Shown piece after piece: positions 1,567 through 34,568 of a stretch of DNA of 34,568 bases (position 1 is the stretch's first letter; each line of letters starts with the position of its first letter). The translations under genes and the position numbers were made by a program. The stretch lies in the IMG/VR virus record IMGVR_UViG_2740892214_000019, positions 1 to 34,568 of that record. One strand, 5' to 3'. The notes below the pieces were generated by a model. That model searched no databases, was not told the origin of the DNA, and worked only from the letters and a program-made list of their open reading frames with translations. This DNA comes from a virus (taxonomy: Duplodnaviria; Heunggongvirae; Uroviricota; Caudoviricetes).

Positions 1567-1932
1567 ATGCGTGATATTCAGATGGTTCTGGAGCGTTGGG
1601 GGGCATGGGCGGCGAGTGATAGTTCAGGCGTTGATTATTCACCTATAGCCGCTGGGTTTAAGGGACTTCTTCCCTATACAAGCAAGAAACGCTTGGCTTG
1701 TTCGGATAGTGATGCCTTAATTATTGAAGGTTGTCTTGCTCGTCTAAAGCAAAAAAAGCCAGATGAGCACTCGCTGCTTGTGGCACATTATTTATACAGA
1801 ATATCCAAGCGTAAGATTGCAAAGGTGCGTGGAAAGGATGAAAAATTGGTACGCATAGAAATACAACTAGCCGAAGGATTTATTGATGGTTGCCTTTCAA
1901 TGTTGGATGTTAACCTTGAAATGGACGCTTAG
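1567..1932 (+). CDS. Late-gene antiterminator Q (Q82/QuuD family)
   Basis: N-terminus MRDIQMVLERWGAWAA and overall length closely resemble E. coli QuuD and phage 82 Q as I recall them. First ATG is at 1567; the track's 1564 is a TTG. Confidence 0.8.
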   Translation: MRDIQMVLERWGAWAASDSSGVDYSPIAAGFKGLLPYTSKKRLACSDSDALIIEGCLARLKQKKPDEHSLLVAHYLYRISKRKIAKVRGKDEKLVRIEIQLAEGFIDGCLSMLDVNLEMDA

Positions 1933-1938
1933 GGTTGC

Positions 1939-1968
1939 ACAGGTTGGCCCCATATGAGGCCAACCTGT
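1939..1968. terminator. Perfect 11-bp inverted repeat (ACAGGTTGGCC, 8-nt loop, GGCCAACCTGT), no U-tract
   Basis: Read directly; lies between the Q stop and the 3' end of the minus-strand cassette. Likely bidirectional attenuator or RNA 3'-end stabiliser. Confidence 0.35.
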
Positions 1969-2417
1969 CACAAGTGGGGGAAGATTTTTCGTAACACTAA
2001 CCAACACCTTCCGAAGGTATATAGCGAAATTATAAGGGAGGATAAGCCTAACAGTATGAATAGGAAATCAATAGGTTTGCCCGCAACAATAACATCATCA
2101 GGTAGAAACATCGCTATCAATGGAAATATACATGCGACGATGAGAGTTAACCCTGTTGAAAGTAATCGATTTACCAGAGTTGGTAACACGTTGTTTTGCT
2201 TAAGGGCATTAATTGCTCCTTCCTTATCGCTGTTTGCACTACTAAATATAGATATTGCAGCCAGAACAAAACCAAACAGGATGCCTGATATAGTCGAGAG
2301 CACCCCCGCTGTTGTGAGTACGTCAGCATGCTTCATCGGTTTAAACAGTTTTGTCGCTGCATAGGTCAACAGAATCCAGAGGACGCATTTCCAGAGAAAA
2401 GTGGCTAATTCTCTCAT
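1968..2417 (-). CDS. Small integral membrane protein, about four predicted TM helices (second gene of moron cassette)
   Basis: Four hydrophobic stretches of about 20 aa by eye. Start preferred at the internal Met at 2417 (MRELAT...) because GGAGGA sits about 6 nt upstream; the track start is 2429. AT-rich by eye. Confidence 0.6.
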   Translation of the reverse strand: MRELATFLWKCVLWILLTYAATKLFKPMKHADVLTTAGVLSTISGILFGFVLAAISIFSSANSDKEGAINALKQNNVLPTLVNRLLSTGLTLIVACIFPLIAMFLPDDVIVAGKPIDFLFILLGLSSLIISLYTFGRCWLVLRKIFPHL

Positions 2418-2438
2418 TGTGTCCTCCATGCTTGGTTA

Positions 2439-3380
2439 TTAGTCTCTGCTAGCGAGCTCATACTGTGCAAGATAGTTCGCGTTATCAATTTTAGCAGATA
2501 TCATCGCCGTTCTGATATCAGAATCGGATGGATAACCGCTTTTGACAATGATTGTCTTTGTACTGACCAATACTTGGTCAAGTAGACTTTTGGGCGTTCT
2601 ATTGGATGGCTCTGTTACATCAATTTTTTTAATTTTTAGACCTCCAGAACCTTTTGGAAAAAGTTCAAGTAGTTCCTTAATAGCATCGGTGACAGAAGTT
2701 TTTAGATAGTTAAACCCTTGTTTTTTCGGGCGAATCCGACCTCGCATATTTAATCTTAGATGCGACCCGCCCATACCAACAACCATGTCAATAATTTCAT
2801 TAGCTAAAGGGTTTTTAATCTTATAATTAGCTTTGTTAAAGTTTCTTGGAGCAGCAACTATAAGATCGAAACTACGTAGGATATTTCCGTCCTCAAGCAG
2901 TTCCTTCATGCTCTCTTGTTTCCAAATGGCTTCAAAAGTGACGCTTTTTAAATCAGTTTTGTTATACAAAATGAATGCCAGATCATTTACTTTGGGCCCT
3001 ATATGGTTGAGGGTCATAGCTAATAAGTCCGTTTCGTAGTAATAGATAAAATATGTTCTTTCAACTACAGAATCTTTATCATTTAAAGGAATTGTTCTCT
3101 CACTACCTGTAGCATCCTCGATGAACGGTAGTAGGCATTCCCTTCTCCACGATACGTAACCAAAGTAACATTGCAGTGTGGTATCTTTTTGAAGAATAAC
3201 TAACTTTAACCCTCGATTTGGGGTGTCTGTTGTGTAAGTTATTGGAAAAGTTTCAGTATCTGCTGTGGTCATTTGCTCAAAGGCTAGTTTTGCAGCAGAT
3301 GTGCCATCTTTTTTGCTTCCATTACCAGTGAAAAAACCAACTCTCACTCGCCTAGTTTTATTCTTATTTTCTGTACTCAT
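2439..3380 (-). CDS. Hypothetical soluble Lys/Arg-rich protein, 313 aa (first gene of moron cassette)
   Basis: Long ORF with AT-rich codon usage unlike the flanking phage genes; stop is 9 nt upstream of the membrane-protein ORF, so operon-like. No family recognised. Confidence 0.65.
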   Translation of the reverse strand: MSTENKNKTRRVRVGFFTGNGSKKDGTSAAKLAFEQMTTADTETFPITYTTDTPNRGLKLVILQKDTTLQCYFGYVSWRRECLLPFIEDATGSERTIPLNDKDSVVERTYFIYYYETDLLAMTLNHIGPKVNDLAFILYNKTDLKSVTFEAIWKQESMKELLEDGNILRSFDLIVAAPRNFNKANYKIKNPLANEIIDMVVGMGGSHLRLNMRGRIRPKKQGFNYLKTSVTDAIKELLELFPKGSGGLKIKKIDVTEPSNRTPKSLLDQVLVSTKTIIVKSGYPSDSDIRTAMISAKIDNANYLAQYELASRD

Positions 3381-3395
3381 TATCGATCCGAAATA

Positions 3396-3425
3396 ATTTT
3401 AGCAACCGTGTGAAAAATACAACAA
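3396..3425 (-). promoter_or_regulatory. Putative sigma70 promoter for the cassette
   Basis: On the minus strand TTGTTG/TTGTAT then TAAAAT upstream of the 3380 start. Weak, by-eye match only. Confidence 0.2.
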
Positions 3426-3502
3426 AAAAAAGAGGAAATCATTAGCGCGGTCCGCAAAAAACATTGTAATCTGTTAAGAGTGGTTACTTCGCCACACAGC
3501 TT

Positions 3503-5016: not shown

Positions 5017-5124
5017 GGTTATATAGCTAGATCGGAATTGGCGATTCATATATCGGAAATAGTTGGTTAAGAATTTTCTGGAATGATTGTATGCTTTTAC
5101 AACCTATATCGAAGTTCATGTTGG

Positions 5125-5994
5125 ATGAATTTTATGCAAAACGTACAGCCGCTATCTCTGGTAACTACTTTAGTAATTTTGAGGTCTAATGGAGAGTCAA
5201 AGTCGTTAGGTACTGGGTTCTTTTATCAACATAGCAATGGTTTCATTTTCCTTGCAACTAACTATCATGTAATAACTGGAATCAGCCCATCCGAAAGGGG
5301 TGTAAAGCCATTTATAGGCGATAGTATTGATATTCAGCTGAGAGATAAAACCGGAAAACTATTCAAACATACGATGCCTCTGTTTAAAGATGGTTCACCG
5401 CTGTGGTTGGAGCACCCCACAGATAAAGAGGCAGACATTATCTTGATGCCTTTGCCTCAAGAGTTGTTTGTAAACACAGGAGTAAAAGTAGTCTCAAAAA
5501 CAACGACACTGCCTAATGTCCAGATAAACCCCTCATCTCCTGTTGTAATGATTGGATATCCTCATGGTTATCATGACACGACTCACTACCTTCCAATATG
5601 GAAAACAGGAAGCTTAGCGAGTGAGCCAGATATCGATTTCGATGGGAAGAAATTAATAGTTGTCGATATTTCTGCTTTCCCTGGAATGTCAGGCTCTCCG
5701 GCATTCTATGTCACGCACAGTGGTTATCTTACAAAAGAAGGGAATATGATCATGGATATGGGAATGAAAATTCATTTCCTTGGCGTTTATGCAAGTATGC
5801 AAATGCTAAACAGTGATCTTTTCTTAGAACAAGTCGTTAGTGCTGCAGAATACAAAGTGTCGCATAGTGAATCTTTGCAACTAGGGCATGTCTGGAAAGC
5901 TGAGTTACTTGAAGAGATAGCTGCGACATCTAGTCCGATTGCAACCACACCATCTCAATTTCAAAGTAATAGCAAATTCTTATTTAAGTACTGA
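5125..5994 (+). CDS. Standalone trypsin-like (chymotrypsin-fold) serine protease, no signal peptide
   Basis: His motif LATNYHV, candidate Asp in KEADIIL, Ser motif GMSGSP, in H-D-S order. AT-rich by eye. Start chosen at the ATG at 5125 rather than the track's 5083. Confidence 0.65.
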   Translation: MNFMQNVQPLSLVTTLVILRSNGESKSLGTGFFYQHSNGFIFLATNYHVITGISPSERGVKPFIGDSIDIQLRDKTGKLFKHTMPLFKDGSPLWLEHPTDKEADIILMPLPQELFVNTGVKVVSKTTTLPNVQINPSSPVVMIGYPHGYHDTTHYLPIWKTGSLASEPDIDFDGKKLIVVDISAFPGMSGSPAFYVTHSGYLTKEGNMIMDMGMKIHFLGVYASMQMLNSDLFLEQVVSAAEYKVSHSESLQLGHVWKAELLEEIAATSSPIATTPSQFQSNSKFLFKY

Positions 5995-23474: not shown

Positions 23475-24098
23475 ATGCATCGTATAGACACGAAAACCGC
23501 GCAGAAGGATAAGTTCGGCGCGGGTAAGAACGGTTTTACCCGTGGTAACCCCCAGACCGGCACGCCTGCCACCGATCTGGATGATGACTACTTTGACATG
23601 TTGCAGGAGGAGCTTTGCAGCGTGGTGGAGGCATCCGGTGCCAGTCTGGAGAAGGCGCGGCACGACCAGCTGCTTACCGCGCTTCGTGCGCTGCTGTTAA
23701 GCCGCAAGAATCCGTTTGGCGATATCAAATCGGATGGCACGGTGAAAACGGCCCTCTCAAATCTTGGTTTGGGCGAAGCGGCGAAACGAGATGTCGGAAC
23801 AGGTGCTAACCAACTACCAGACATGTCTGCATGGACCAGTGGTAGTGGGTGGGTAAAGTTTCCAGACGGGACAATTATTCAGAGCGGGAGGACAACCATG
23901 GCGGCAGGACAGATTGCGGTAAGGACGCTGCCAATCCCTTTTACTACCTCAGGCTATATTGTTCTTGCTTCGTTCTGGGGTTCAGATCCCTCACCTTCAA
24001 AACCAGTTGGCGTGTCGTCAGCTGATCTTTCAACAATCCGAATTGCCAACTGGAGCACTCCAGCAGCAGAAATTGCCTGGATAGCCATAGGGAAATAA
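23475..24098 (+). CDS. Tail fibre protein, constant N-terminus plus currently expressed variable C-terminus
   Basis: [10 protein letters not shown]... N-terminus typical of short S/Stf-type fibres; the inversion crossover site lies inside the gene near codon 95. Confidence 0.75.
23753..23778. repeat. Left inversion crossover site (gix/hix/pix-like)
   Basis: CTCTCAAATCTTGGTTTGGGCGAAG is in inverted orientation to the site at 25589-25614 and shares the TTGGTTTGGG-GAA half-site. Confidence 0.5.
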
Positions 24099-24100
24099 AT

Positions 24101-24547
24101 ATGACCAAATACAGATACTCAGCAGTTACAAACGAATTTTTCCCTTACTCCCTTAAGGATAGCTACCTGGCAAGCGGGCAATGGCCTGATGAGGGAGTCG
24201 ATTTTGATGAGGACGGATTTATCTCCTGGAAAGCAGAAAATGCACCGGATGGCAAGATACGTGCAGCAGGGAATGATGGCTTCCCTGAATGGGTAGATGA
24301 ACCTGAACCGACTCACGAAGAACTTGTTAGAACTGCTGACGCCGAAAAAAGGTCCCGTATTGAGCAGGCTAACTATTATATCAATAGTAAGCAGTGGCCC
24401 GGTAAAGCCGCTATTGGTCGTCTGAAAGGTGACGAACTGGCGCAATATAATTTGTGGCTGGATTATCTGGACGCACTGGAACTGGTTGATACTTCCAGTG
24501 CGCCGGATATTGAATGGCCTACGCCTCCGGCAGTTCAGGCCAGATGA
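24101..24547 (+). CDS. Tail fibre assembly chaperone (Tfa)
   Basis: Tfa-typical N-terminus and C-terminal IEWPTPP motif. Confidence 0.85.
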   Translation: MTKYRYSAVTNEFFPYSLKDSYLASGQWPDEGVDFDEDGFISWKAENAPDGKIRAAGNDGFPEWVDEPEPTHEELVRTADAEKRSRIEQANYYINSKQWPGKAAIGRLKGDELAQYNLWLDYLDALELVDTSSAPDIEWPTPPAVQAR

Positions 24548-25121
24548 CATCCGGCGCGGTGCTGGTATCTGTTGCCGCCACCGCGTCAATGTAATCCAGC
24601 ACAGCGTTAAGCCGGGTTGTTTCTGCCTGCGTCAGTTTCCGCCCGGCCTGTAATTTCAGCTGAATCAGACTAATGGAAGCCATTGCTGCATCAATCAGTG
24701 ACTGGCGCTGTGCTTCTGCCGCTTCTACTGCGGCACCGTGTTGTGCCTCAGTATCTGTCACCCATTTCTCACCATCCCATTTATCGTATGGCGTTAATGG
24801 GGCGATAGTGGTTGTATTTTCAGGGTAATCACCCGGAGCTGTGATTTCTTTTGATTCTCCTGTTTCAGTGCTATATACCGTTTCACCACGGTGGTCTGGC
24901 ACATATACCCATGAGTTAAAATCTGCAGAACGGCAGATTGCATAACCAGCTTTATATGGGTCAGGAGCATCTAAACAGGAGCATGCCGGGATTCCTACGC
25001 CAACGGCAAGATATTCTGTTGATGATGAAATGTATTCCCGTGTCGTGTTGTCATAGCTATAGACGGTAATATCACCCGCTACTGTGGCAATAAATTCACT
25101 GTTTAATTTTGCCTGTGTCAT
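24519..25121 (-). CDS. Alternative tail fibre assembly chaperone (Tfa')
   Basis: C-terminal VIWPELP motif; convergent with the plus-strand Tfa. Confidence 0.85.
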   Translation of the reverse strand: MTQAKLNSEFIATVAGDITVYSYDNTTREYISSSTEYLAVGVGIPACSCLDAPDPYKAGYAICRSADFNSWVYVPDHRGETVYSTETGESKEITAPGDYPENTTTIAPLTPYDKWDGEKWVTDTEAQHGAAVEAAEAQRQSLIDAAMASISLIQLKLQAGRKLTQAETTRLNAVLDYIDAVAATDTSTAPDVIWPELPEA

Positions 25122-25642
25122 TATGCGGCCCTCACGATGTAGTTAAATGCGACGTTTCGCGGGCGGTTTTCTGGTGCTGTAGGCACAACTCTGGAAGCAT
25201 CAAAACTACCAGACAAAGGTCTTGTATCAGCGCCACCTCCAGCACTAGTGATAGGTTGTATAGTTTCGTTACTCCCCGCAAAGGCACCTGACAATTGACT
25301 TAAAGCCCCAGCTGTTGAGCCATTATTCAATACCGAAATGATACCGGTGATATTTCTAATTGCATCGCCCTGAGAGGAAAGCAAACTCCTCGCAGAATCA
25401 ATCCCGCGTCCGTCATCCCAACCGCGTAGAAACTCACCACGTAAATCAGGCAATTTATTTGTCGGATAAACTTTTGCCAGTTCCGGGTATTCTTCAGCAG
25501 AAAAAGCCGCACCATTGCATTTCAGCCAGCCTGTTGGCGGAGTGGCTGAAGGCCACGGAACAGGCACACCAACGGGTAATGCCGAACCTTCTCCCAAACC
25601 AACGTTTATGAAAATGCAGAGATAACGGGCAACTGGCATCAT
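25121..25642 (-). CDS. Alternative tail fibre C-terminal segment, expressed only after inversion
   Basis: Contains the fibre-tip motif PVGVPVPWP...GWLKCNGAAFS..YPELAKVYP; the ORF's apparent N-terminus crosses the right crossover site, so it has no independent start. Confidence 0.7.
   Translation of the reverse strand: MMPVARYLCIFINVGLGEGSALPVGVPVPWPSATPPTGWLKCNGAAFSAEEYPELAKVYPTNKLPDLRGEFLRGWDDGRGIDSARSLLSSQGDAIRNITGIISVLNNGSTAGALSQLSGAFAGSNETIQPITSAGGGADTRPLSGSFDASRVVPTAPENRPRNVAFNYIVRAA
25589..25614. repeat. Right inversion crossover site (gix/hix/pix-like)
   Basis: TTCTCCCAAACCAACGTTTATGAAAA, a 26-bp imperfect dyad resembling Hin/Gin sites, about 50 bp upstream of the invertase start. 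Confidence 0.6.
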
Positions 25643-25663
25643 CTCCGGTTTTTATTCAGGGGG

Positions 25664-26263
25664 ATGCTCATGCTTATTGGCTATGTACGCGTGTCAACAA
25701 ATGACCAGAACACGGAATTGCAGCGTAACGCGCTGGAGTGTGCAGGATGTGAGCTGATTTTTGAGGATAAAATCAGCGGCACGAAGTCCGACCGACCGGG
25801 ACTGAAAAAACTGCTCAGAACATTATCAGCAGGTGACACTCTGGTGGTCTGGAAGCTGGACAGGCTGGGGCGTAGTATGCGGCATCTGGTCATTCTGGTT
25901 GAGGAGCTGCGCGAACGCGGCGTTAATTTTCGCAGCCTGACGGATGCTATTGATACCAGCACGCCGATGGGGCGCTTTTTCTTTCATGTGATGGGTGCCC
26001 TGGCTGAAATGGAGCGAGAACTCATTGTCGAGCGGACACGCGCCGGACTGGAAGCGGCCAGAGCCAAAGGTCGTATTGGTGGCAGACGACCGAAACTCAC
26101 CACGAGTGAGTGGGAGCAGGTCGGACGGTTGCTGGCTGCGGGGGAATCTCGTCAACGTGTGGCGCTGATTTTTGATATTGGCCTGTCCACGCTCTATAAA
26201 AAATTCCCCTCATCAGCGACAAAGAATAAATTGTGTCATCCCTTAGCCAACCGGGACAAATAG
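25664..26263 (+). CDS. Serine DNA invertase (Gin/Pin/Hin/Cin family)
   Basis: N-terminal LIGYVRVST(N)DQ catalytic motif and C-terminal helix-turn-helix; small resolvase/invertase size. Start may be the second ATG at 25670. Confidence 0.9.
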   Translation: MLMLIGYVRVSTNDQNTELQRNALECAGCELIFEDKISGTKSDRPGLKKLLRTLSAGDTLVVWKLDRLGRSMRHLVILVEELRERGVNFRSLTDAIDTSTPMGRFFFHVMGALAEMERELIVERTRAGLEAARAKGRIGGRRPKLTTSEWEQVGRLLAAGESRQRVALIFDIGLSTLYKKFPSSATKNKLCHPLANRDK

Positions 26264-26322
26264 CCTGACATCTCCGGCACAACTGAAAATACCACTCACC
26301 CATTAACCACGGAGTTAAACGG

Positions 26323-27513
26323 ATGAGTGACTATCATCACGGCGTGCAGGTGCTGGAGATTAACGACGGCACCCGCGTCATTTCCACCGTATCCACTGCC
26401 ATTGTCGGCATGGTCTGCACGGCCAGCGATGCGGATGCGGAAACCTTCCCCCTCAATAAACCTGTGCTGATTACCAATGTGCAGAACGCAATTGCAAAGG
26501 CCGGTAAAAAAGGCACGCTGGCGGCATCGTTGCAGGCCATCGCTGACCAGTCAAAACCGGTCACCGTTGTCGTGCGCGTGGAAGACGGCACCGGTGATGA
26601 CGAGGAAACGAAACTCGCGCAGACCGTTTCCAATATCATCGGCACCACCGACGAAAACGGTCAGTACACCGGACTGAAAGCCCTGCTGGCGGCGGAGTCG
26701 GTAACTGGTGTTAAACCGCGTATTCTCGGCGTGCCGGGACTGGACACCAAAGAGGTGGCGGTTGCACTGGCATCAGTCTGTCAGAAGCTGCGCGCTTTCG
26801 GGTATATCAGCGCATGGGGCTGTAAAACCATTTCCGAGGTGAAAGCCTACCGCCAGAATTTCAGCCAGCGTGAGCTGATGGTCATCTGGCCGGATTTCCT
26901 CGCATGGGATACGGTCGCCAGTACCACCGCCACCGCGTATGCCACCGCCCGTGCGCTGGGTCTGCGCGCTAAAATCGACCAGGAGCAGGGCTGGCATAAA
27001 ACGCTGTCCAACGTCGGGGTGAACGGTGTTACCGGAATCAGCGCGTCCGTATTCTGGGATTTGCAGGAGTCCGGCACCGATGCTGACCTGCTTAACGAGT
27101 CAGGCGTCACAACGCTGATTCGCCGTGACGGTTTCCGCTTCTGGGGTAACCGTACCTGCTCTGATGACCCGCTGTTCCTCTTTGAAAACTACACCCGCAC
27201 CGCGCAGGTGCTGGCCGACACGATGGCTGAGGCGCACATGTGGGCGGTGGACAAGCCCATCACCGCAACGCTGATTCGCGACATCGTTGACGGCATCAAT
27301 GCCAAATTCCGTGAGTTGAAAACAAACGGCTATATCGTGGATGCGACCTGCTGGTTCAGCGAAGAATCCAACGATGCGGAAACCCTCAAGGCCGGAAAAC
27401 TGTATATCGACTACGACTATACACCGGTACCTCCTCTTGAAAACCTGACCCTGCGCCAGCGTATTACCGATAAATACCTGGCGAATCTGGTCACCTCGGT
27501 TAACAGCAATTAA
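26323..27513 (+). CDS. FI: P2-type tail sheath protein
   Basis: 396 aa; near-identical along its length to P2 gpFI as I recall it. Confidence 0.93.
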   Translation: MSDYHHGVQVLEINDGTRVISTVSTAIVGMVCTASDADAETFPLNKPVLITNVQNAIAKAGKKGTLAASLQAIADQSKPVTVVVRVEDGTGDDEETKLAQTVSNIIGTTDENGQYTGLKALLAAESVTGVKPRILGVPGLDTKEVAVALASVCQKLRAFGYISAWGCKTISEVKAYRQNFSQRELMVIWPDFLAWDTVASTTATAYATARALGLRAKIDQEQGWHKTLSNVGVNGVTGISASVFWDLQESGTDADLLNESGVTTLIRRDGFRFWGNRTCSDDPLFLFENYTRTAQVLADTMAEAHMWAVDKPITATLIRDIVDGINAKFRELKTNGYIVDATCWFSEESNDAETLKAGKLYIDYDYTPVPPLENLTLRQRITDKYLANLVTSVNSN

Positions 27514-27525
27514 GGAGCCTGACCG

Positions 27526-28044
27526 ATGGCAATGCCGCGCAAACTCAAGTTAATGAACGTCTTTCTGAACGGCTACAGCTATCAGGGCGTTGCAAAGTCC
27601 GTCACGCTGCCAAAACTGACCCGTAAGCTCGAAAACTATCGCGGTGCGGGGATGAACGGCAGCGCACCGGTAGACCTCGGCCTTGATGACGATGCGCTGT
27701 CAATGGAGTGGTCGCTCGGTGGCTTCCCGGATTCGGTTATCTGGGAGCTTTACGCCGCAACCGGTGTGGATGCCGTACCGATTCGTTTTGCAGGCTCTTA
27801 CCAGCGCGACGATACCGGCGAAACGGTGGCCGTCGAGGTGGTCATGCGTGGACGTCAGAAAGAAATCGACACCGGCGAGGGCAAACAGGGAGAAGACACC
27901 GAGTCGAAAATCTCCGTGGTCTGCACCTATTTCCGGCTGACGATGGACGGTAAGGAGCTGGTCGAAATCGACACCATCAACATGATTGAGAAGGTGAACG
28001 GCGTCGACCGGCTGGAGCAACACCGCCGCAATATCGGCCTGTGA
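27526..28044 (+). CDS. FII: P2-type tail tube protein
   Basis: 172 aa; matches P2 gpFII. Confidence 0.93.
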   Translation: MAMPRKLKLMNVFLNGYSYQGVAKSVTLPKLTRKLENYRGAGMNGSAPVDLGLDDDALSMEWSLGGFPDSVIWELYAATGVDAVPIRFAGSYQRDDTGETVAVEVVMRGRQKEIDTGEGKQGEDTESKISVVCTYFRLTMDGKELVEIDTINMIEKVNGVDRLEQHRRNIGL

Positions 28045-28100
28045 TTTTCATCCGGTCAGTCTGGCTGACCGGTTAACCCCGATTCAGAAGTGAGAAAACC

Positions 28101-28376
28101 ATGAACAAAGAAAACGTCATTACCCTGGACAATCCGGTCAAACGTGGTGAGCAGGTTATCGAACAGATCACGCTGATGAAACCCAATGCCGGGACGCTGC
28201 GCGGTGTCAGTCTGGCTGCAGTCGCGAACTCCGAAGTCGATGCACTGATTAAAGTGCTGCCGCGCATGACGGCACCGATGCTGACCGAGCAGGAAGTCGC
28301 CGCGCTGGAACTGCCTGACCTTGTGGCGCTGGCCGGTAAGGTGGTCGGTTTTTTGTCGCCGAACTCGGTGCAGTGA
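28101..28376 (+). CDS. E: P2-type tail assembly chaperone
   Basis: 91 aa; slippery T TTT TTG at 28349-28355 near the 3' end. Confidence 0.9.
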   Translation: MNKENVITLDNPVKRGEQVIEQITLMKPNAGTLRGVSLAAVANSEVDALIKVLPRMTAPMLTEQEVAALELPDLVALAGKVVGFLSPNSVQ

Positions 28377-28528
28377 CGTTTCCGAAAAATCTCTCGGTCG
28401 ATGACCTGATGGCGGATGTGGCAGTGATATTTCACTGGCCGCCATCAGAACTGTATCCCATGAGCCTGACCGAACTCATCACATGGCGCGAAAAGGCGCT
28501 CCGGCGAAGTGGAAACACGAATGAGTAA
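28101..28528 (+). CDS. E': P2-type E+E' programmed -1 frameshift product
   Basis: After the slip the -1 frame is open to TAA at 28526-28528, overlapping the T start. Confidence 0.75.
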
Positions 28529-30968
28529 CAATGTAAAATTACAGGTATTGCTCAGGGCTGTTGACCAGGCATCCCGCCCGTTTAAATCCATCCGCACAGC
28601 GAGCAAGTCGCTGTCGGGGGATATCCGGGAAACACAAAAATCACTGCGCGAGCTGAACGGTCACGCATCCCGTATTGAGGGATTCCGCAAGACCAGCGCA
28701 CAGCTCGCCGTGACTGGTCATGCACTTGAAAAGGCTCGGCAGGAAGCAGAAGCCCTTGCCACACAGTTTAAAAACACCGAACGTCCGACCCGTGCTCAGG
28801 CGAAAGTGCTGGAATCCGCAAAGCGTGCGGCGGAGGACTTACAGGCGAAATATAACCGCCTGACGGATTCCGTTAAACGCCAGCAGCGGGAACTGGCCGC
28901 TGTGGGAATTAATACCCGCAATCTTGCACATGATGAGCAGGGACTGAAAAACCGTATCAGTGAAACCACCGCACAGCTTAACCGTCAGCGCGACGCGCTG
29001 GCGCGTGTCAGTGCGCAACAGGCAAAACTTAACGCAGTCAAACAGCGTTATCAGGCCGGAAAGGAGCTGGCCGGAAATATGGCCTCAGTGGGCGCTGCCG
29101 GTGTGGGGATTGCAGCGGCGGGAACGATGGCCGGTGTTAAGCTACTGATGCCCGGTTATGAGTTTGCGCAGAAAAACTCAGAATTGCAGGCCGTGCTAGG
29201 TGTGGCAAAAGACTCCGCCGAAATGGCCGCACTCCGCAAGCAGGCGCGCCAGCTCGGCGACAATACCGCCGCCTCGGCAGATGATGCAGCCGGTGCGCAG
29301 ATTATTATTGCGAAAGCCGGTGGGGATGTTGATGCCATTCAGGCGGCAACGCCGGTCACGCTGAACATGGCGCTGGCGAACCGCCGCACGATGGAAGAAA
29401 ACGCCGCCCTGTTGATGGGGATGAAATCCGCCTTTCAGCTTTCAAACGATAAGGTCGCTCATATCGGGGATGTTCTCTCCATGACGATGAACAAAACCGC
29501 CGCCGATTTTGACGGTATGAGCGATGCGCTGACCTATGCTGCACCTGTGGCAAAAAATGCCGGTGTCAGCATTGAAGAAACCGCCGCAATGGTCGGGGCG
29601 CTGCATGATGCAAAAATTACCGGTTCAATGGCGGGGACGGGAAGCCGTGCCGTGTTAAGTCGCCTGCAGGCACCGACGGGAAAAGCATGGGATGCACTCA
29701 AAGAGCTTGGCGTGAAAACCTCAGACAGTAAGGGGAATACCCGACCAGTATTTACCATTCTGAAAGAAATGCAGGCCAGTTTTGAGAAAAACCGGCTCGG
29801 TACTGCCCAGCAGGCTGAATACATGAAAACCATTTTCGGGGAGGAGGCCAGCTCAGCCGCCGCCGTGCTGATGACTGCCGCCTCAACCGGAAAGCTGGAC
29901 AAACTGACCGCTGCGTTTAAAGCCTCAGACGGGAAGACCGCCGAGCTGGTAAATATCATGCAGGACAACCTCGGCGGTGACTTTAAGGAGTTTCAGTCCG
30001 CTTATGAGGCGGTGGGGACAGACCTGTTTGACCAGCAGGAAGGCGCGCTGCGTAAGCTCACGCAGACGGCCACAAAGTATGTGTTAAAACTCGACGGCTG
30101 GATACAGAAAAACAAATCACTGGCGTCAACCATTGGCCTCATTGCCGGTGGCGCGCTGGCGCTTACTGGCATCATCGGTGCAATTGGTCTTGTTGCCTGG
30201 CCGGTTATCACCGGCATCAATGCCATCATCGCGGCAGCAGGCGCAATGGGGGCAATCTTCACGACGGTTGGTAGTGCCGTTATGACGGCTATCGGGGCGA
30301 TTAGCTGGCCGGTTGTGGCCGTGGTGGCTGCAATTGTCGCCGGGGCGTTGCTTATCCGTAAATACTGGGAGCCTGTCAGCGCATTCTTTGGCGGTGTGGT
30401 GGAAGGGCTGAAAGCGGCATTTGCGCCGGTGGGGGAACTGTTCACGCCACTTAAGCCGCTGTTTGACTGGCTGGGTGAAAAGTTACAGGCCGCGTGGCAG
30501 TGGTTTAAAAACCTGATTGCCCCCGTCAAAGCCACCCAGGACACCCTGAACCGTTGCCGTGACACGGGTGTCATGTTCGGGCAGGCACTGGCTGACGCGT
30601 TGATGCTGCCGCTTAATGCGTTCAACAAACTGCGCAGCGGTATTGACTGGGTACTGGAAAAACTCGGCGTTATCAACAAAGAGTCAGGCACGCTTGACCA
30701 GACCGCCGCCAGAACTCATGCCGCCACGTATGGCACCGGTGGTTATATTCCGGCGGCCAGCTCTTATGCAGGTTATCAGGCTTATCAGCCGGTCACGGCA
30801 CCGGCTGGCCGCTCTTATGTGGACCAGAGTAAAAACGAATATCACATCAACCTGACGGGCGGTACTGCGCCGGGGACACAGCTCGACCGCCAGTTACAGG
30901 ATGCACTCGAAAAATACGAGCGGGATAAACGTGCGCGCGCCCGTGCCAGCATGATGCATGACGGTTAA
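28521..30968 (+). CDS. T: P2-type tail tape measure protein
   Basis: Matches P2 gpT starting MSNNVKLQ; the track's 28509 start is a GTG, the ATG is at 28521. Confidence 0.9.
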   Translation: MSNNVKLQVLLRAVDQASRPFKSIRTASKSLSGDIRETQKSLRELNGHASRIEGFRKTSAQLAVTGHALEKARQEAEALATQFKNTERPTRAQAKVLESAKRAAEDLQAKYNRLTDSVKRQQRELAAVGINTRNLAHDEQGLKNRISETTAQLNRQRDALARVSAQQAKLNAVKQRYQAGKELAGNMASVGAAGVGIAAAGTMAGVKLLMPGYEFAQKNSELQAVLGVAKDSAEMAALRKQARQLGDNTAASADDAAGAQIIIAKAGGDVDAIQAATPVTLNMALANRRTMEENAALLMGMKSAFQLSNDKVAHIGDVLSMTMNKTAADFDGMSDALTYAAPVAKNAGVSIEETAAMVGALHDAKITGSMAGTGSRAVLSRLQAPTGKAWDALKELGVKTSDSKGNTRPVFTILKEMQASFEKNRLGTAQQAEYMKTIFGEEASSAAAVLMTAASTGKLDKLTAAFKASDGKTAELVNIMQDNLGGDFKEFQSAYEAVGTDLFDQQEGALRKLTQTATKYVLKLDGWIQKNKSLASTIGLIAGGALALTGIIGAIGLVAWPVITGINAIIAAAGAMGAIFTTVGSAVMTAIGAISWPVVAVVAAIVAGALLIRKYWEPVSAFFGGVVEGLKAAFAPVGELFTPLKPLFDWLGEKLQAAWQWFKNLIAPVKATQDTLNRCRDTGVMFGQALADALMLPLNAFNKLRSGIDWVLEKLGVINKESGTLDQTAARTHAATYGTGGYIPAASSYAGYQAYQPVTAPAGRSYVDQSKNEYHINLTGGTAPGTQLDRQLQDALEKYERDKRARARASMMHDG

Positions 30969-30982
30969 GGAGGTGACGAAAA

Positions 30983-31462
30983 ATGATGCTCGCGTTAGGT
31001 ATGTTTGTTTTTATGCGCCAGACGCTGCCACACCAGACCATGCAGCGTGAATCAGATTATCGCTGGCCGTCAAATTCCCGTATCGGTAAACGGGATGCCT
31101 ACCAGTTTCTCGGTGTGGGTGAGGAAAACATTACGCTTGCCGGTGTGCTTTATCCTGAACTGACCGGCGGAAAGCTGACGATGACCACGCTCAGACTGAT
31201 GGCAGAGGAAGGCCGGGCGTGGCCGTTGCTGGATGGCACCGGAATGATTTACGGCATGTATGTCATCAGCAGGGTGAGTGAAACAGGGAGTATTTTCTTT
31301 GCAGACGGCACACCCCGGAAAATTGATTTTACGCTGTCGCTCACCCGCGTTGATGAATCACTGGCCGCGCTTTATGGCGATATCGGTAAACAGGCGGAGT
31401 CGCTCATCGGTAAGGCCGGCAGTCTGGCGACCAGATTCACAGGTATGATGGGGGCGGGATAA
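30983..31462 (+). CDS. U: P2-type tail protein
   Basis: Matches P2 gpU in size and sequence. Confidence 0.9.
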   Translation: MMLALGMFVFMRQTLPHQTMQRESDYRWPSNSRIGKRDAYQFLGVGEENITLAGVLYPELTGGKLTMTTLRLMAEEGRAWPLLDGTGMIYGMYVISRVSETGSIFFADGTPRKIDFTLSLTRVDESLAALYGDIGKQAESLIGKAGSLATRFTGMMGAG

Positions 31463-32625
31463 TGCTGGATGCGCTGACATTTGATGCAGGCAGTACGCTG
31501 ACGCCGGATTACATGCTGATGCTCGACAGCAGGGATATTACCGGCAATATCAGCGACCGTCTGATGAGCATGACTCTGACGGATAACCGGGGCTTTGAAG
31601 CTGACCAGCTTGATATTGAACTGAACGATGCCGACGGGCAGGTCGGGCTGCCGGTTCGTGGCGCTGTCCTGACGGTGTATATCGGCTGGAAAGGTTTTGC
31701 CCTGGTATGCAAAGGGAAATTTACCGTTGATGAGGTTGAACACCGGGGCGCACCGGATGTGGTCACCATCCGCGCCCGGAGTGCAGATTTTCGTGGGACG
31801 CTCAATTCCCGCCGTGAAGGCTCCTGGCATGACACCACGCTCGGTGCGATTGTTGAGGCGATAGCCTCCCGTAACAGGCTGGAAGCCAGTGTCGCTCCGT
31901 CACTGGCCGGAATTAAAATCCCGCACATCGACCAGTCGCAGGAGTCTGATGCAAAATTCCTGACCCGCCTTGCTGAACGCAACGGCGGTGAGGTGTCGGT
32001 AAAAATGGGAAAACTGTTGTTTCTCAAAGCGGGGCAGGGGGTGACGGCCAGCGGTAAAAAAATCCCGCAGATTACCATCACCCGCAGCGACGGCGACCGT
32101 CATCATTTTGCGATTGCTGACCGTGGAGCCTATACCGGCGTAACGGCAAAGTGGCTTCACACCAAAGACCCGAAGCCGCAAAAGCAGAAGGTAAAACTGA
32201 AACGCAAAAAGAAAGAAAAACACCTGCGCGCACTGGAGCACCCAAAAGCGAAACCGGTCAGGCAGAAGAAAGCGCCAAAAGTACCGGAAGCGCGCGAAGG
32301 TGAATATATGGCCGGTGAGGCTGACAATGTTTTTGCCCTGACCACGGTATATGCCACGAAAGCGCAGGCCATGCGCGCCGCTCAGGCGAAGTGGGATAAA
32401 CTGCAACGGGGCGTTGCGGAGTTCTCCATCAGCCTGGCTACCGGTCGGGCAGATATTTACACGGAAACACCGGTTAAAGTGTCAGGCTTTAAGCGCGTCA
32501 TAGACGAGCAGGACTGGACAATCACTAAGGTGACACATTTTCTGAATAATAGCGGCTTCACGACGTCCCTGGAGCTTGAGGTCAGGCTTTCTGATGTGGA
32601 GTACGAAACAGAAGATGATGAGTGA
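31462..32625 (+). CDS. D: P2-type late control / tail protein
   Basis: 387 aa; matches P2 gpD. Confidence 0.9.
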   Translation: MLDALTFDAGSTLTPDYMLMLDSRDITGNISDRLMSMTLTDNRGFEADQLDIELNDADGQVGLPVRGAVLTVYIGWKGFALVCKGKFTVDEVEHRGAPDVVTIRARSADFRGTLNSRREGSWHDTTLGAIVEAIASRNRLEASVAPSLAGIKIPHIDQSQESDAKFLTRLAERNGGEVSVKMGKLLFLKAGQGVTASGKKIPQITITRSDGDRHHFAIADRGAYTGVTAKWLHTKDPKPQKQKVKLKRKKKEKHLRALEHPKAKPVRQKKAPKVPEAREGEYMAGEADNVFALTTVYATKAQAMRAAQAKWDKLQRGVAEFSISLATGRADIYTETPVKVSGFKRVIDEQDWTITKVTHFLNNSGFTTSLELEVRLSDVEYETEDDE

Positions 32626-32706
32626 TGTTTTTATTTTATCTGTTTGTTTTATAAGGATAATTTAACTAAAATGGCACCATCAACAAAACCGGAAGAGGTG
32701 CTCGCG

Positions 32707-32925
32707 ATGTTTCATTGTCCTTTATGCCAGCATGCCGCACATGCGCGTACAAGCCGCTATATCACTGACACGACAAAAGAGCGTTATCATCAGTGCCAGA
32801 ACGTGAATTGTAGTGCCACGTTCATCACTTATGAGTCGGTACAGCGATACATCGTGAAGCCGGGAGAAGTCCACGCCGTAAGGCCGCACCCGTTGCCGTC
32901 AGGGCAGCAAATTATGTGGATGTAA
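32707..32925 (+). CDS. ogr: Ogr zinc-finger late-gene transcriptional activator
   Basis: 72 aa starting MFHCPLCQHAAHARTSRYI with a four-Cys zinc finger; the upstream in-frame extension from 32644 is not used. Confidence 0.9.
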   Translation: MFHCPLCQHAAHARTSRYITDTTKERYHQCQNVNCSATFITYESVQRYIVKPGEVHAVRPHPLPSGQQIMWM

Positions 32926-32935
32926 TTACAAACAG

Positions 32936-32959
32936 GAAGCCCCTCAGTCGAGGGGCTTT
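32936..32959. terminator. Bidirectional stem-loop (AAGCCCCTC, loop, GAGGGGCTT) after ogr
   Basis: Read directly; followed by TTTCAACTTTGTTT. It also lies just 3' of the minus-strand 32977-33378 gene. Confidence 0.55.
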
Positions 32960-32976
32960 CAACTTTGTTTAGGAGC

Positions 32977-33378
32977 TTATTTCCCTGTGTAAAGACGTGT
33001 TTGGGATGAAAGTAACACTTGCCCCTGTTTAGGCGTCAACGAACCTATTTCATTGCATGTTTTTAATGGTTCGGAAAAAACATAACCGATGGATTTATAT
33101 TGATTAACTATGCTTATTTCTTTGATTTTTTTGAGATATGAAACAGGCGTGTCTTTTGTCCAGACTGGTGCGCATACACCAGTCATAATCAGGTTGTTGT
33201 AGGCGTCAGGAGAGATTTCTTTGCCAGGAAGCACCACCGTAAGCGAGTTGTTTTTATTCGTGATTTCTAGGGGTTGCCATGGTTTAAGCTGCTTTTGAAG
33301 GGTTTTAATATCATTCGCGTTTGCGTTGAGTGAAATTATTAAGGTGGCTATTGCCATCACTGATTTAAGAGTTGCCAT
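32977..33378 (-). CDS. Small secreted/periplasmic protein of unknown function (133 aa, two Cys)
   Basis: N-terminal signal peptide with LNANA cleavage region; AAGGA RBS about 7 nt upstream; AT-rich by eye. Confidence 0.6.
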   Translation of the reverse strand: MATLKSVMAIATLIISLNANANDIKTLQKQLKPWQPLEITNKNNSLTVVLPGKEISPDAYNNLIMTGVCAPVWTKDTPVSYLKKIKEISIVNQYKSIGYVFSEPLKTCNEIGSLTPKQGQVLLSSQTRLYTGK

Positions 33379-33438
33379 AGAAAATCCTTAATAAACATTT
33401 GGTTGAGTAAAATTCATACCTCCAAAAAGAGGAAAAAT

Positions 33439-33463
33439 AAAGCCCCATGTGCTTAGGGGCTTT
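33439..33463. terminator. Hairpin AAAGCCCC, 9-nt loop, GGGGCTTT
   Basis: Read directly; the U-rich flank is on the minus-strand side. Confidence 0.4.
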
Positions 33464-33557
33464 CAGTAGTCGATGTGGACGCTATGTGGACAGTGTTTGA
33501 TATAAATCCATTTATATCATCAGGTTAGGTGCATTTTTGTGACACCATCCCTGTCTT

Positions 33558-33584
33558 CCCCCACATGATGTGGGGGTTTTTTTT
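33558..33584 (+). terminator. Strong intrinsic terminator (CCCCCACA, TGA loop, TGTGGGGG, then T8) upstream of fieF
   Basis: Read directly; resembles what I recall of the cpxP 3' end / CpxQ sRNA terminator, unverified. Confidence 0.7.
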
Positions 33585-33665
33585 ATCCTCAATTTGCCTG
33601 CTGCTTAATGCATTGCAGATGATTTGCTTCCGTTATACTACCGTCAGTTGATAGCGGGAGTATTT

Positions 33666-34568
33666 ATGAATCAATCTTATGGACGGCTGGTCAGTCGGGC
33701 GGCGATTGCTGCGACGGCGATGGCTTCGCTGCTATTGCTGATTAAAATTTTTGCATGGTGGTATACCGGGTCGGTGAGTATTCTCGCCGCGCTGGTGGAT
33801 TCGCTGGTGGATATCGGCGCGTCGTTGACGAATTTACTGGTGGTGCGATATTCCCTGCAACCTGCCGACGATAATCACTCGTTTGGTCACGGTAAAGCTG
33901 AGTCCCTCGCGGCGCTGGCGCAAAGTATGTTTATCTCCGGTTCGGCACTATTCCTGTTTTTGACGGGTATTCAACATCTGGTATCTCCAACACCGATGAC
34001 AGATCCAGGCGTCGGGGTTATCGTGACAATTGTGGCGCTAATTTGTACGATTATCCTTGTCTCGTTTCAGCGTTGGGTGGTGCGCCGGACGCAAAGCCAG
34101 GCGGTGCGGGCTGATATGCTACATTACCAGTCTGATGTTATGATGAACGGCGCAATTCTGCTGGCGCTGGGGTTGTCCTGGTACGGCTGGCATCGCGCCG
34201 ATGCTCTGTTTGCATTGGGGATCGGCATCTATATTTTATATAGCGCGTTACGCATGGGATATGAGGCGGTACAGTCATTACTGGATCGCGCATTGCCTGA
34301 TGAGGAACGGCAAGAAATTATTGATATCGTGACTTCCTGGCCGGGTGTTAGCGGCGCTCACGATCTTCGCACGCGGCAGTCAGGGCCGACCCGCTTTATT
34401 CAGATTCATTTGGAAATGGAAGACTCTCTGCCTTTGGTTCAGGCACATATGGTGGCGGATCAGGTAGAGCAGGCTATTTTACGGCGTTTTCCGGGATCGG
34501 ATGTGATTATCCATCAGGACCCCTGTTCCGTCGTACCCAGGGAGGGTAAACGGTCTATGCTTTCATAA
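33666..34568 (+). CDS. fieF: Cation-diffusion facilitator, Fe/Zn efflux transporter FieF (YiiP)
   Basis: 300 aa starting [53 protein letters not shown], matching E. coli FieF as I recall it; stop codon is at the window end. Confidence 0.95.

Follow-up and report, generated by a model that had tools for sequence, protein, structure and literature searches.

The junction at positions 32926-33665 of the window (the whole stretch of 34,568 nucleotides that was analysed) is, on sequence grounds, very probably the attR of a P2-like prophage (Peduovirus, WPhi integration type) that sits in the tail of the host gene cpxP and carries a moron. The cpxP-fieF interval is the published WPhi site, and the junction is of a well-known kind and represents ordinary biology; only the cargo is a minority variant. 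The insertion sites described in E. coli W include 'cpxP-fieF: Wphi1 (P2)' (PMC3032704 Table 2), and a study of O157 lists a 31-kb prophage between cpxP and fieF (PMC7609406 Table 3). The original prediction had called the junction atypical, which is correct for the cargo insert, found in only 44 of the 5426 complete E. coli genomes, and incorrect for the integration site, as the combination of arm, core and fieF-upstream sequence was detected in 790 of the same genomes. Its proposal that a prophage had integrated in the cpxP 3' region, with a secreted-protein gene as att-proximal cargo, agrees with our data: core, attL, attR and attP match, and the gene is linked to ogr.

Layout of the junction

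The last core gene of the P2-like prophage is ogr (32707-32925, plus strand), which encodes a P2-type late-gene activator of 72 aa (Pfam Ogr_Delta, E=1.1e-21) and is annotated as ogrK in the almost identical genome NZ_CP124374. It is followed by a bidirectional intrinsic terminator (32935-32960, both strands) that is common to ogr on the plus strand and to the convergent 133-aa gene on the minus strand; the hairpin folds with -22.3 and -20.2 kcal/mol (z about -5, -5.1), and the scan matches it on both strands. Compared to WPhi, the next segment (32961-33463, minus strand) is an insert of about 0.5 kb of AT-rich cargo, consisting of a gene and a second hairpin, and its exact limits are ambiguous inside the duplicated hairpin. 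The gene is a 133-aa ORF (32977-33378, minus strand, from the ORF list) for a predicted exported protein of PHROG 3807, with an AAGGA Shine-Dalgarno sequence 6 nt 5' of the ATG. A candidate -10 element for it, TATGAA (33413-33418, minus strand), is suggested by the sequence and the alignment, and the second hairpin (33439-33463, minus strand) is terminator-like by scan and fold, with a T-run following on the minus strand.

The phage att arm on the ogr side of attP (33464-33540) has about 88% identity to WPhi and to many Peduovirus genomes. It holds an AT-rich stretch and two direct repeats of ATGTGGAC (33473-33480 and 33484-33491), assigned as integrase arm sites from the repeat positions and the alignment. 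The attR copy of the att core, GACACCATCCCTGTCTTCCCCCACATGATGTGGGGGTTTTTTTTATC (33541-33587, plus strand), is 47 bp long and consists of the last ~44 nt of the cpxP 3'UTR/CpxQ and ATC. Duplicated with the core is the Rho-independent terminator of cpxP/CpxQ (33558-33584, plus strand), with the stem-loop at 33558-33576 and the T-run extending to 33584. Unaltered host cpxP-fieF intergenic DNA (33588-33665, plus strand), colinear with K-12 and with one mismatch at 33641, leads to the host gene fieF (33666-34568, plus strand), a CDF cation-efflux transporter according to the annotation of matching genomes. The terminator scan gave five terminator-like sites in 32600-33700, versus 0.9 expected from shuffles. 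The original prediction had placed ogr, its terminator, the 133-aa minus-strand ORF, the hairpin at 33439-33463 and the terminator at 33558-33584 exactly where we find them.

Attachment core and host-phage boundary

In a megablast search of 32600-34100 against the 5426 complete E. coli genomes, every genome matches from 33541 rightwards and only a minority match left of this position. Host homology begins exactly at 33541 and is gap-free against K-12, where the position aligns 24 nt past the cpxP stop codon, inside the cpxP 3'UTR. The alignment to the cpxP-fieF region, which had been suggested as the way to locate the boundary, places the start of host DNA at 33541 and the att core at 33541-33587. 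The earlier impression that 33540-33584 resembles the cpxP 3' end is borne out, as the terminator segment matches K-12 with a single core difference to the K-12 attB (33568, A vs C, a base in the terminator loop), and the allele of the window over 33541-33640 is matched exactly by many prophage-free genomes.

The complete lysogen NZ_CP124374 has a junction that is 99.9% identical to the window. Its P2-like prophage of 30 kb (int, C, cox ... D, ogr) lies between intact cpxR-cpxP and fieF, with the integrase 187 bp beyond the cpxP stop. Its attL reads ...ttccttgccata, followed by GACACCATCCCTGTCTTCCCCCACATGATGTGGGGGTTTTTTTTATC and then aattactt..., in which the middle 47 bases are those of 33541-33587 in the window; attL and attR are identical over 47/47 positions of the core. 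The identical 47-bp core, flanked by the same arms, forms the attP of WPhi, Yersinia phage P37 and Salmonella phage FSL SP-004. Within the 34.6-kb window the core occurs once (0 expected by chance), and the order D/U/T/FII/FI is 98.4% identical to a P2-like prophage. The direct repeats of ATGTGGAC fit the published P2-type arm-site consensus tgTGGaCa (PMC3448106). The cognate integrase and the attL of the P2-like element are absent from the window, and both are present in NZ_CP124374. The boundaries, the core and the arm sites are thus directly observed in these comparisons.

In this reading the phage tyrosine integrase recombined the 47-bp attP core with an identical attB, which comprises the 3' two-thirds of the cpxP 3'UTR (the CpxQ sRNA), terminator included. 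As the phage brings this sequence with it, integration rebuilds cpxP-CpxQ intact at attL and leaves a promoterless 3' CpxQ fragment with its terminator at attR, 79 bp upstream of an undisturbed fieF. The 79 bp between core and fieF are host sequence, and therefore fieF keeps its own upstream region. The hairpin at 33558-33584 is the same one that lies 3' of cpxP in K-12 according to scan, fold and alignment. It had been described as a terminator without a plus-strand gene feeding it, which the ORF list supports, as no such gene lies upstream; this 'orphan terminator' is the cpxP terminator, present in a second copy because it belongs to the recombination core.

Architecture of the cargo insert

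The insert has a GC content of 38%, compared to 55.6% for the P2 late genes, and it is absent from WPhi in the alignment. Similar hairpins bracket it: AAGCCCC...GGGGCTTT is found at 32937-32958 and again at 33439-33463, so that the terminator hairpin at 32935-32960 is the left copy of a duplicated hairpin. The stem of the right copy is retained in P37, FSL SP-004, Citrobacter and Serratia, with differing loops and changed stem bases. This hairpin lies upstream of the cargo gene and therefore would stop leftward transcription crossing att, which in the circular phage would come from the int side. The -10-like TATGAA (33418-33413) between this hairpin and the gene is weak and aligns with TATAAA in Citrobacter and Serratia; no sigma-70 promoter for the cargo gene exceeded the threshold of the consensus scan.

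In its architecture the insert conforms to a moron, with one AT-rich gene that runs opposite to the late operon, is terminator-bracketed and is dispensable. The observed features are presence or absence among colinear relatives, deviant GC and own terminators (32935-32960 and 33439-33463). It seems that the phage lineage has gained this moron of about 0.5 kb between ogr and the att arm. The interval from the tail protein to C has been flagged as a third accessory hotspot of P2-like phages (bioRxiv 10.1101/2024.10.15.618418; PMC13586616). The insert is like the accessory cargo of P2-like phages in the region D/ogr-att-int-C in being a single AT-rich, present-or-absent, terminator-bracketed gene, but differs in having no recognisable defence or virulence domain and only a candidate promoter (bioRxiv 10.1101/2024.10.15.618418; PMC13586616).

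The predicted exported protein

By inspection, the hydrophobic N-terminus of the 133-aa protein, MATLKSVMAIATLIISLNANA/ND, resembles a Sec signal peptide without lipobox, with predicted cleavage after ANA at about residue 21. The cysteines C69 and C108 are invariant in both close and remote homologues. The AlphaFold (AF2) model has a mean pLDDT of 81, with residues 1-19 below 50. The homology search that had been recommended for the protein was productive in part: it belongs to PHROG 3807 (E=2.7e-56, function unknown), and the match led to no characterised family. No match was obtained in Pfam, NCBIfam or PADLOC, nor to any family, defence model or solved fold, the known anti-phage and lysozyme-inhibitor families included. 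A profile search gave 219 clusters at 50% identity, most of them of 120-140 aa; in a few, the domain forms the C-terminal part of a larger protein and is fused to an unrelated partner (pentapeptide-repeat, SH3, bPH).

The gene product would be a Sec-exported periplasmic protein of ~112 residues in its mature form, probably disulfide-bonded, and we infer both its export to the periplasm and its expression from the prophage. As a working view, the protein may act as a lysogenic-conversion factor at the cell envelope, where it might exclude other phages, for example. A more specific idea, to which we assign a rather low probability, is that PHROG 3807 is an uncharacterised exported two-cysteine family providing a new envelope conversion factor of CpxQ-site P2-like phages (through phage exclusion or altered Cpx-sensed stress), with the CpxQ fragment at attR maybe expressed.

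It is also conceivable, but unlikely, that the protein serves the lytic cycle of the phage (e.g. lysis timing, or as a virion component) and not the lysogen. The gene adjoins the late-gene activator ogr, and small periplasmic proteins can act in lysis. However, the gene is dispensable, being missing in WPhi and in about 94% of the prophages at the site, and its orientation opposite to the late operon, its bracketing terminators and its foreign composition follow the moron pattern.

The CpxQ fragment at attR

CpxQ is an exceptionally conserved, Hfq-dependent sRNA of ~60 nt; RNase E cuts it from the cpxP mRNA, and it covers nearly all of the cpxP 3'UTR (PMC9438474; PMC4817254). The overlap of the core with CpxQ follows directly from the sequences, and in the literature searched we found no paper stating that the WPhi site overlaps CpxQ or linking CpxQ with an integrase or att. 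At attL, the host 5' part of CpxQ is joined to the phage-borne 3' part, which gives a complete cpxP-CpxQ. The attR copy still has the conserved single-stranded stretch and, after it, the terminator hairpin with the U-tract, as 33541-33584 equals K-12 in all but one loop base; it is without the first ~14 nt of CpxQ and without cpxP upstream. It is a CpxQ fragment and not a CpxQ gene. Rfam is without a CpxQ family to score against; when the junction and the K-12 cpxP-fieF spacer were scanned with it, only sub-threshold matches appeared (Hrs1, on the wrong strand, and NsiR1), which were rejected as chance.

In the attR copies of Escherichia, Citrobacter and Serratia, the stem of the CpxQ terminator carries paired substitutions (CCCCCACA/TGTGGGGG, CCCCTCCA/TGGAGGGG and CCCCGCCA/TGGCGGGG), and the CACCATCCCTGTCTTCCCC stretch 5' of the stem is invariant across these copies.

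The truncated copy might itself be functional: a phage or arm promoter could drive a short Hfq-binding RNA, which would supplement the genuine CpxQ or compete with it. The retained terminator hairpin, U-tract and invariant CACCAUCCCUGUCUUCCCC stretch would suit such a role, as would the invariance of the CACCAUCCCUGUCUUCCCC stretch at attR in Citrobacter and Serratia too, while the terminator stem varies by paired changes. We nevertheless consider this very unlikely: from the ogr terminator to the core, the consensus scan gave no promoter-like site on the plus strand, the copy is without the first ~14 nt and without the upstream cpxP mRNA that is the normal RNase E substrate (PMC9438474), and its conservation is already accounted for by the role as recombination core.

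The chimeric window and the missing cpxP

Positions 1-24519 of the window come from another element, which is located at dusA in other genomes and combines early and lysis genes of lambdoid type with a P27-type terminase and a Mu-like tail; 23763-34568 is the tail end of the P2-like prophage of the cpxP site. A single 5.18-Mb contig of GCA_949764985.1 carries both parent prophages, which have the same orientation and are separated by about 209 kb. Up to 24519 the window shows 99.96% identity to the dusA prophage of this assembly, and from 24065 on it has 0 mismatches to the P2-like prophage there, and the crossover therefore lies within the 455-bp identical stretch 24065-24519. The joint, at about 24.1-24.5 kb, falls in a shared tail-fibre/tfa module, and the hybrid was found in 0 of the 5426 complete E. 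coli genomes. The gene order could reflect the joint of a tandem duplication or a circle excised between direct repeats, or equally a mis-join of the assembly at the repeat. How the ogr-fieF junction is read does not depend on the chimeric joint.

The original prediction was right that no CpxP ORF is present, as none occurs anywhere in the 34.6-kb window, which also holds no second copy of the core. It had offered two explanations, the second being that cpxP was replaced in this lineage; with cpxP replaced or deleted, the terminator would be the remnant of a lost gene. The absence of both cpxP and a second core from the window would be consistent with such a loss, yet we regard it as extremely unlikely, since the lysogen NZ_CP124374, with its 99.9% identical junction, has intact cpxR-cpxP directly at attL, and to the left of 33541 lies a canonical phage att arm and no deletion scar. 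The 5' part of cpxP, for which a search of the left flank of the prophage had been suggested, was not found in the window: cpxP is missing because the tail end of the P2-like prophage is joined at about 24.1-24.5 kb to the different, dusA-site prophage.

Some further features of the two elements were observed. Positions 23759-25607 together with 25664-26263 form a Gin/Pin-type invertible tail-fibre segment at the Z/fun hotspot, with 20-bp inverted crossover-like sites at 23759-23778 and 25588-25607 that enclose an alternative fibre tip (Collar domain) and a pair of tail-fibre-assembly genes in opposite orientations. The serine invertase gene (Resolvase and HTH_7) lies just 5' of the P2 sheath gene FI. 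The 847-bp block 25601-26447, consisting of the invertase gene and the initial ~125 bp of FI, has the opposite orientation in GCA_949764985.1 (L009 16932-17778), which cuts FI to 349 aa in that assembly. One end of this 847-bp inversion is the right crossover site, which suggests an aberrant invertase-mediated event at a pseudo-site in FI. In the left-hand phage, the space from the Q antiterminator to the holin, where Stx phages have their toxin genes, holds a minus-strand two-gene cassette (1611-3442; ORFs 2439-3380 of 313 aa and 1968-2429 of 153 aa, the latter apparently a membrane protein). MS1679 has other genes instead, and the cassette gave no Pfam or PADLOC matches; it may be uncharacterised accessory or defence cargo. 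A 303-aa ORF (5083-5994) after the left-hand lysis cassette, whose counterpart in MS1679 is annotated as an S1 family peptidase, is unusual cargo for a place that has the lysis genes on one side and the HNH/terminase genes on the other.

Origin and distribution of the cargo gene

The cargo insert occurs in 44 of the 5426 complete E. coli genomes, compared to the 790 with the junction, and the 133-aa gene is always beside ogr in them; the possibility raised with the original prediction, that it is a conserved neighbour of fieF in this species, does not apply. At the nucleotide level the insert is 99.2% identical to Yersinia phage GMS190, 79% to P37 and 71% to Salmonella phage FSL SP-004. All three carry the orthologous gene between ogr and attP/int and have an identical core. 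In the isolated phages P37 and FSL SP-004 the gene has the same ogr-attP position as in the window; they differ in that the orthologues have diverged (79% nt and 73% aa in P37, 71% nt in FSL SP-004) and in a longer integrase gene of 1011 bp. In the assembly collection, about 2000 indexed blocks contain the exact 133-aa protein, and the order fieF - gene - ogr - D - U was seen in 10/10 of the contexts that were read for it. Prophages of Citrobacter koseri and Serratia ficaria have orthologues beside fieF in the same gene order as the window, and their att cores show species-specific, pair-preserving changes in the terminator stem.

The dN/dS of the gene against the phage orthologues is 0.08-0.19, and it is a real coding gene under purifying selection because of this ratio. 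It is phage cargo and not a host gene, as seen in its phage origin, its conservation and its fixed position. Although the ORF is annotated only as 'hypothetical protein' and is without a Pfam family, the alternative that it is a chromosomal E. coli gene normally beside fieF, or not a real gene, can practically be discarded given its absence from K-12 and from more than 99% of the complete genomes, its constant linkage to ogr, its presence in packaged phage genomes and the dN/dS of a real coding gene.

Relation to other integration sites and significance

The closest comparison is the att system of WPhi (Peduovirus Wphi), together with the prophage Wphi1 of E. coli W, which has the same 47-bp core, D-ogr-att order and chromosomal site, and an arm with the ATGTGGAC repeats at about 88% identity. 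It differs in that the ogr terminator abuts the arm directly as a single hairpin, whereas here ~0.5 kb of cargo lies between them. More broadly, temperate phages are known in the 3' ends of small RNA genes with a phage-borne core restoring the gene, such as phage 186 (tRNA-Ile), Fels-2/SopE-phi (ssrA) and P2-like phages at rybB and cyaR (PMC3448106; PMC3032704 Table 2); the rybB and cyaR sRNA genes are occupied by P2-like prophages in the same E. coli W table that lists the cpxP-fieF site (PMC3032704 Table 2). As at those sites, the core spans the 3' end of a highly conserved regulatory RNA, terminator included; integration restores the gene at attL and puts a second copy of the 3' fragment at attR. 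The difference is that CpxQ, the target here, is a 3'UTR-derived sRNA on the transcript of a protein gene, and not an RNA gene standing alone.

For annotation it is of value that the terminator before fieF is a duplicated att core and not a gene remnant. The family of the cargo protein is widespread and wholly uncharacterised, which may interest specialists. Both cpxP/CpxQ and fieF survive the integration intact. In ~15% of the complete E. coli genomes the prophage core replaces the 3' two-thirds of CpxQ, and therefore CpxQ is partly phage-encoded in them. The extreme conservation of CpxQ may be what allows the same site to be used in Escherichia, Citrobacter and Serratia.
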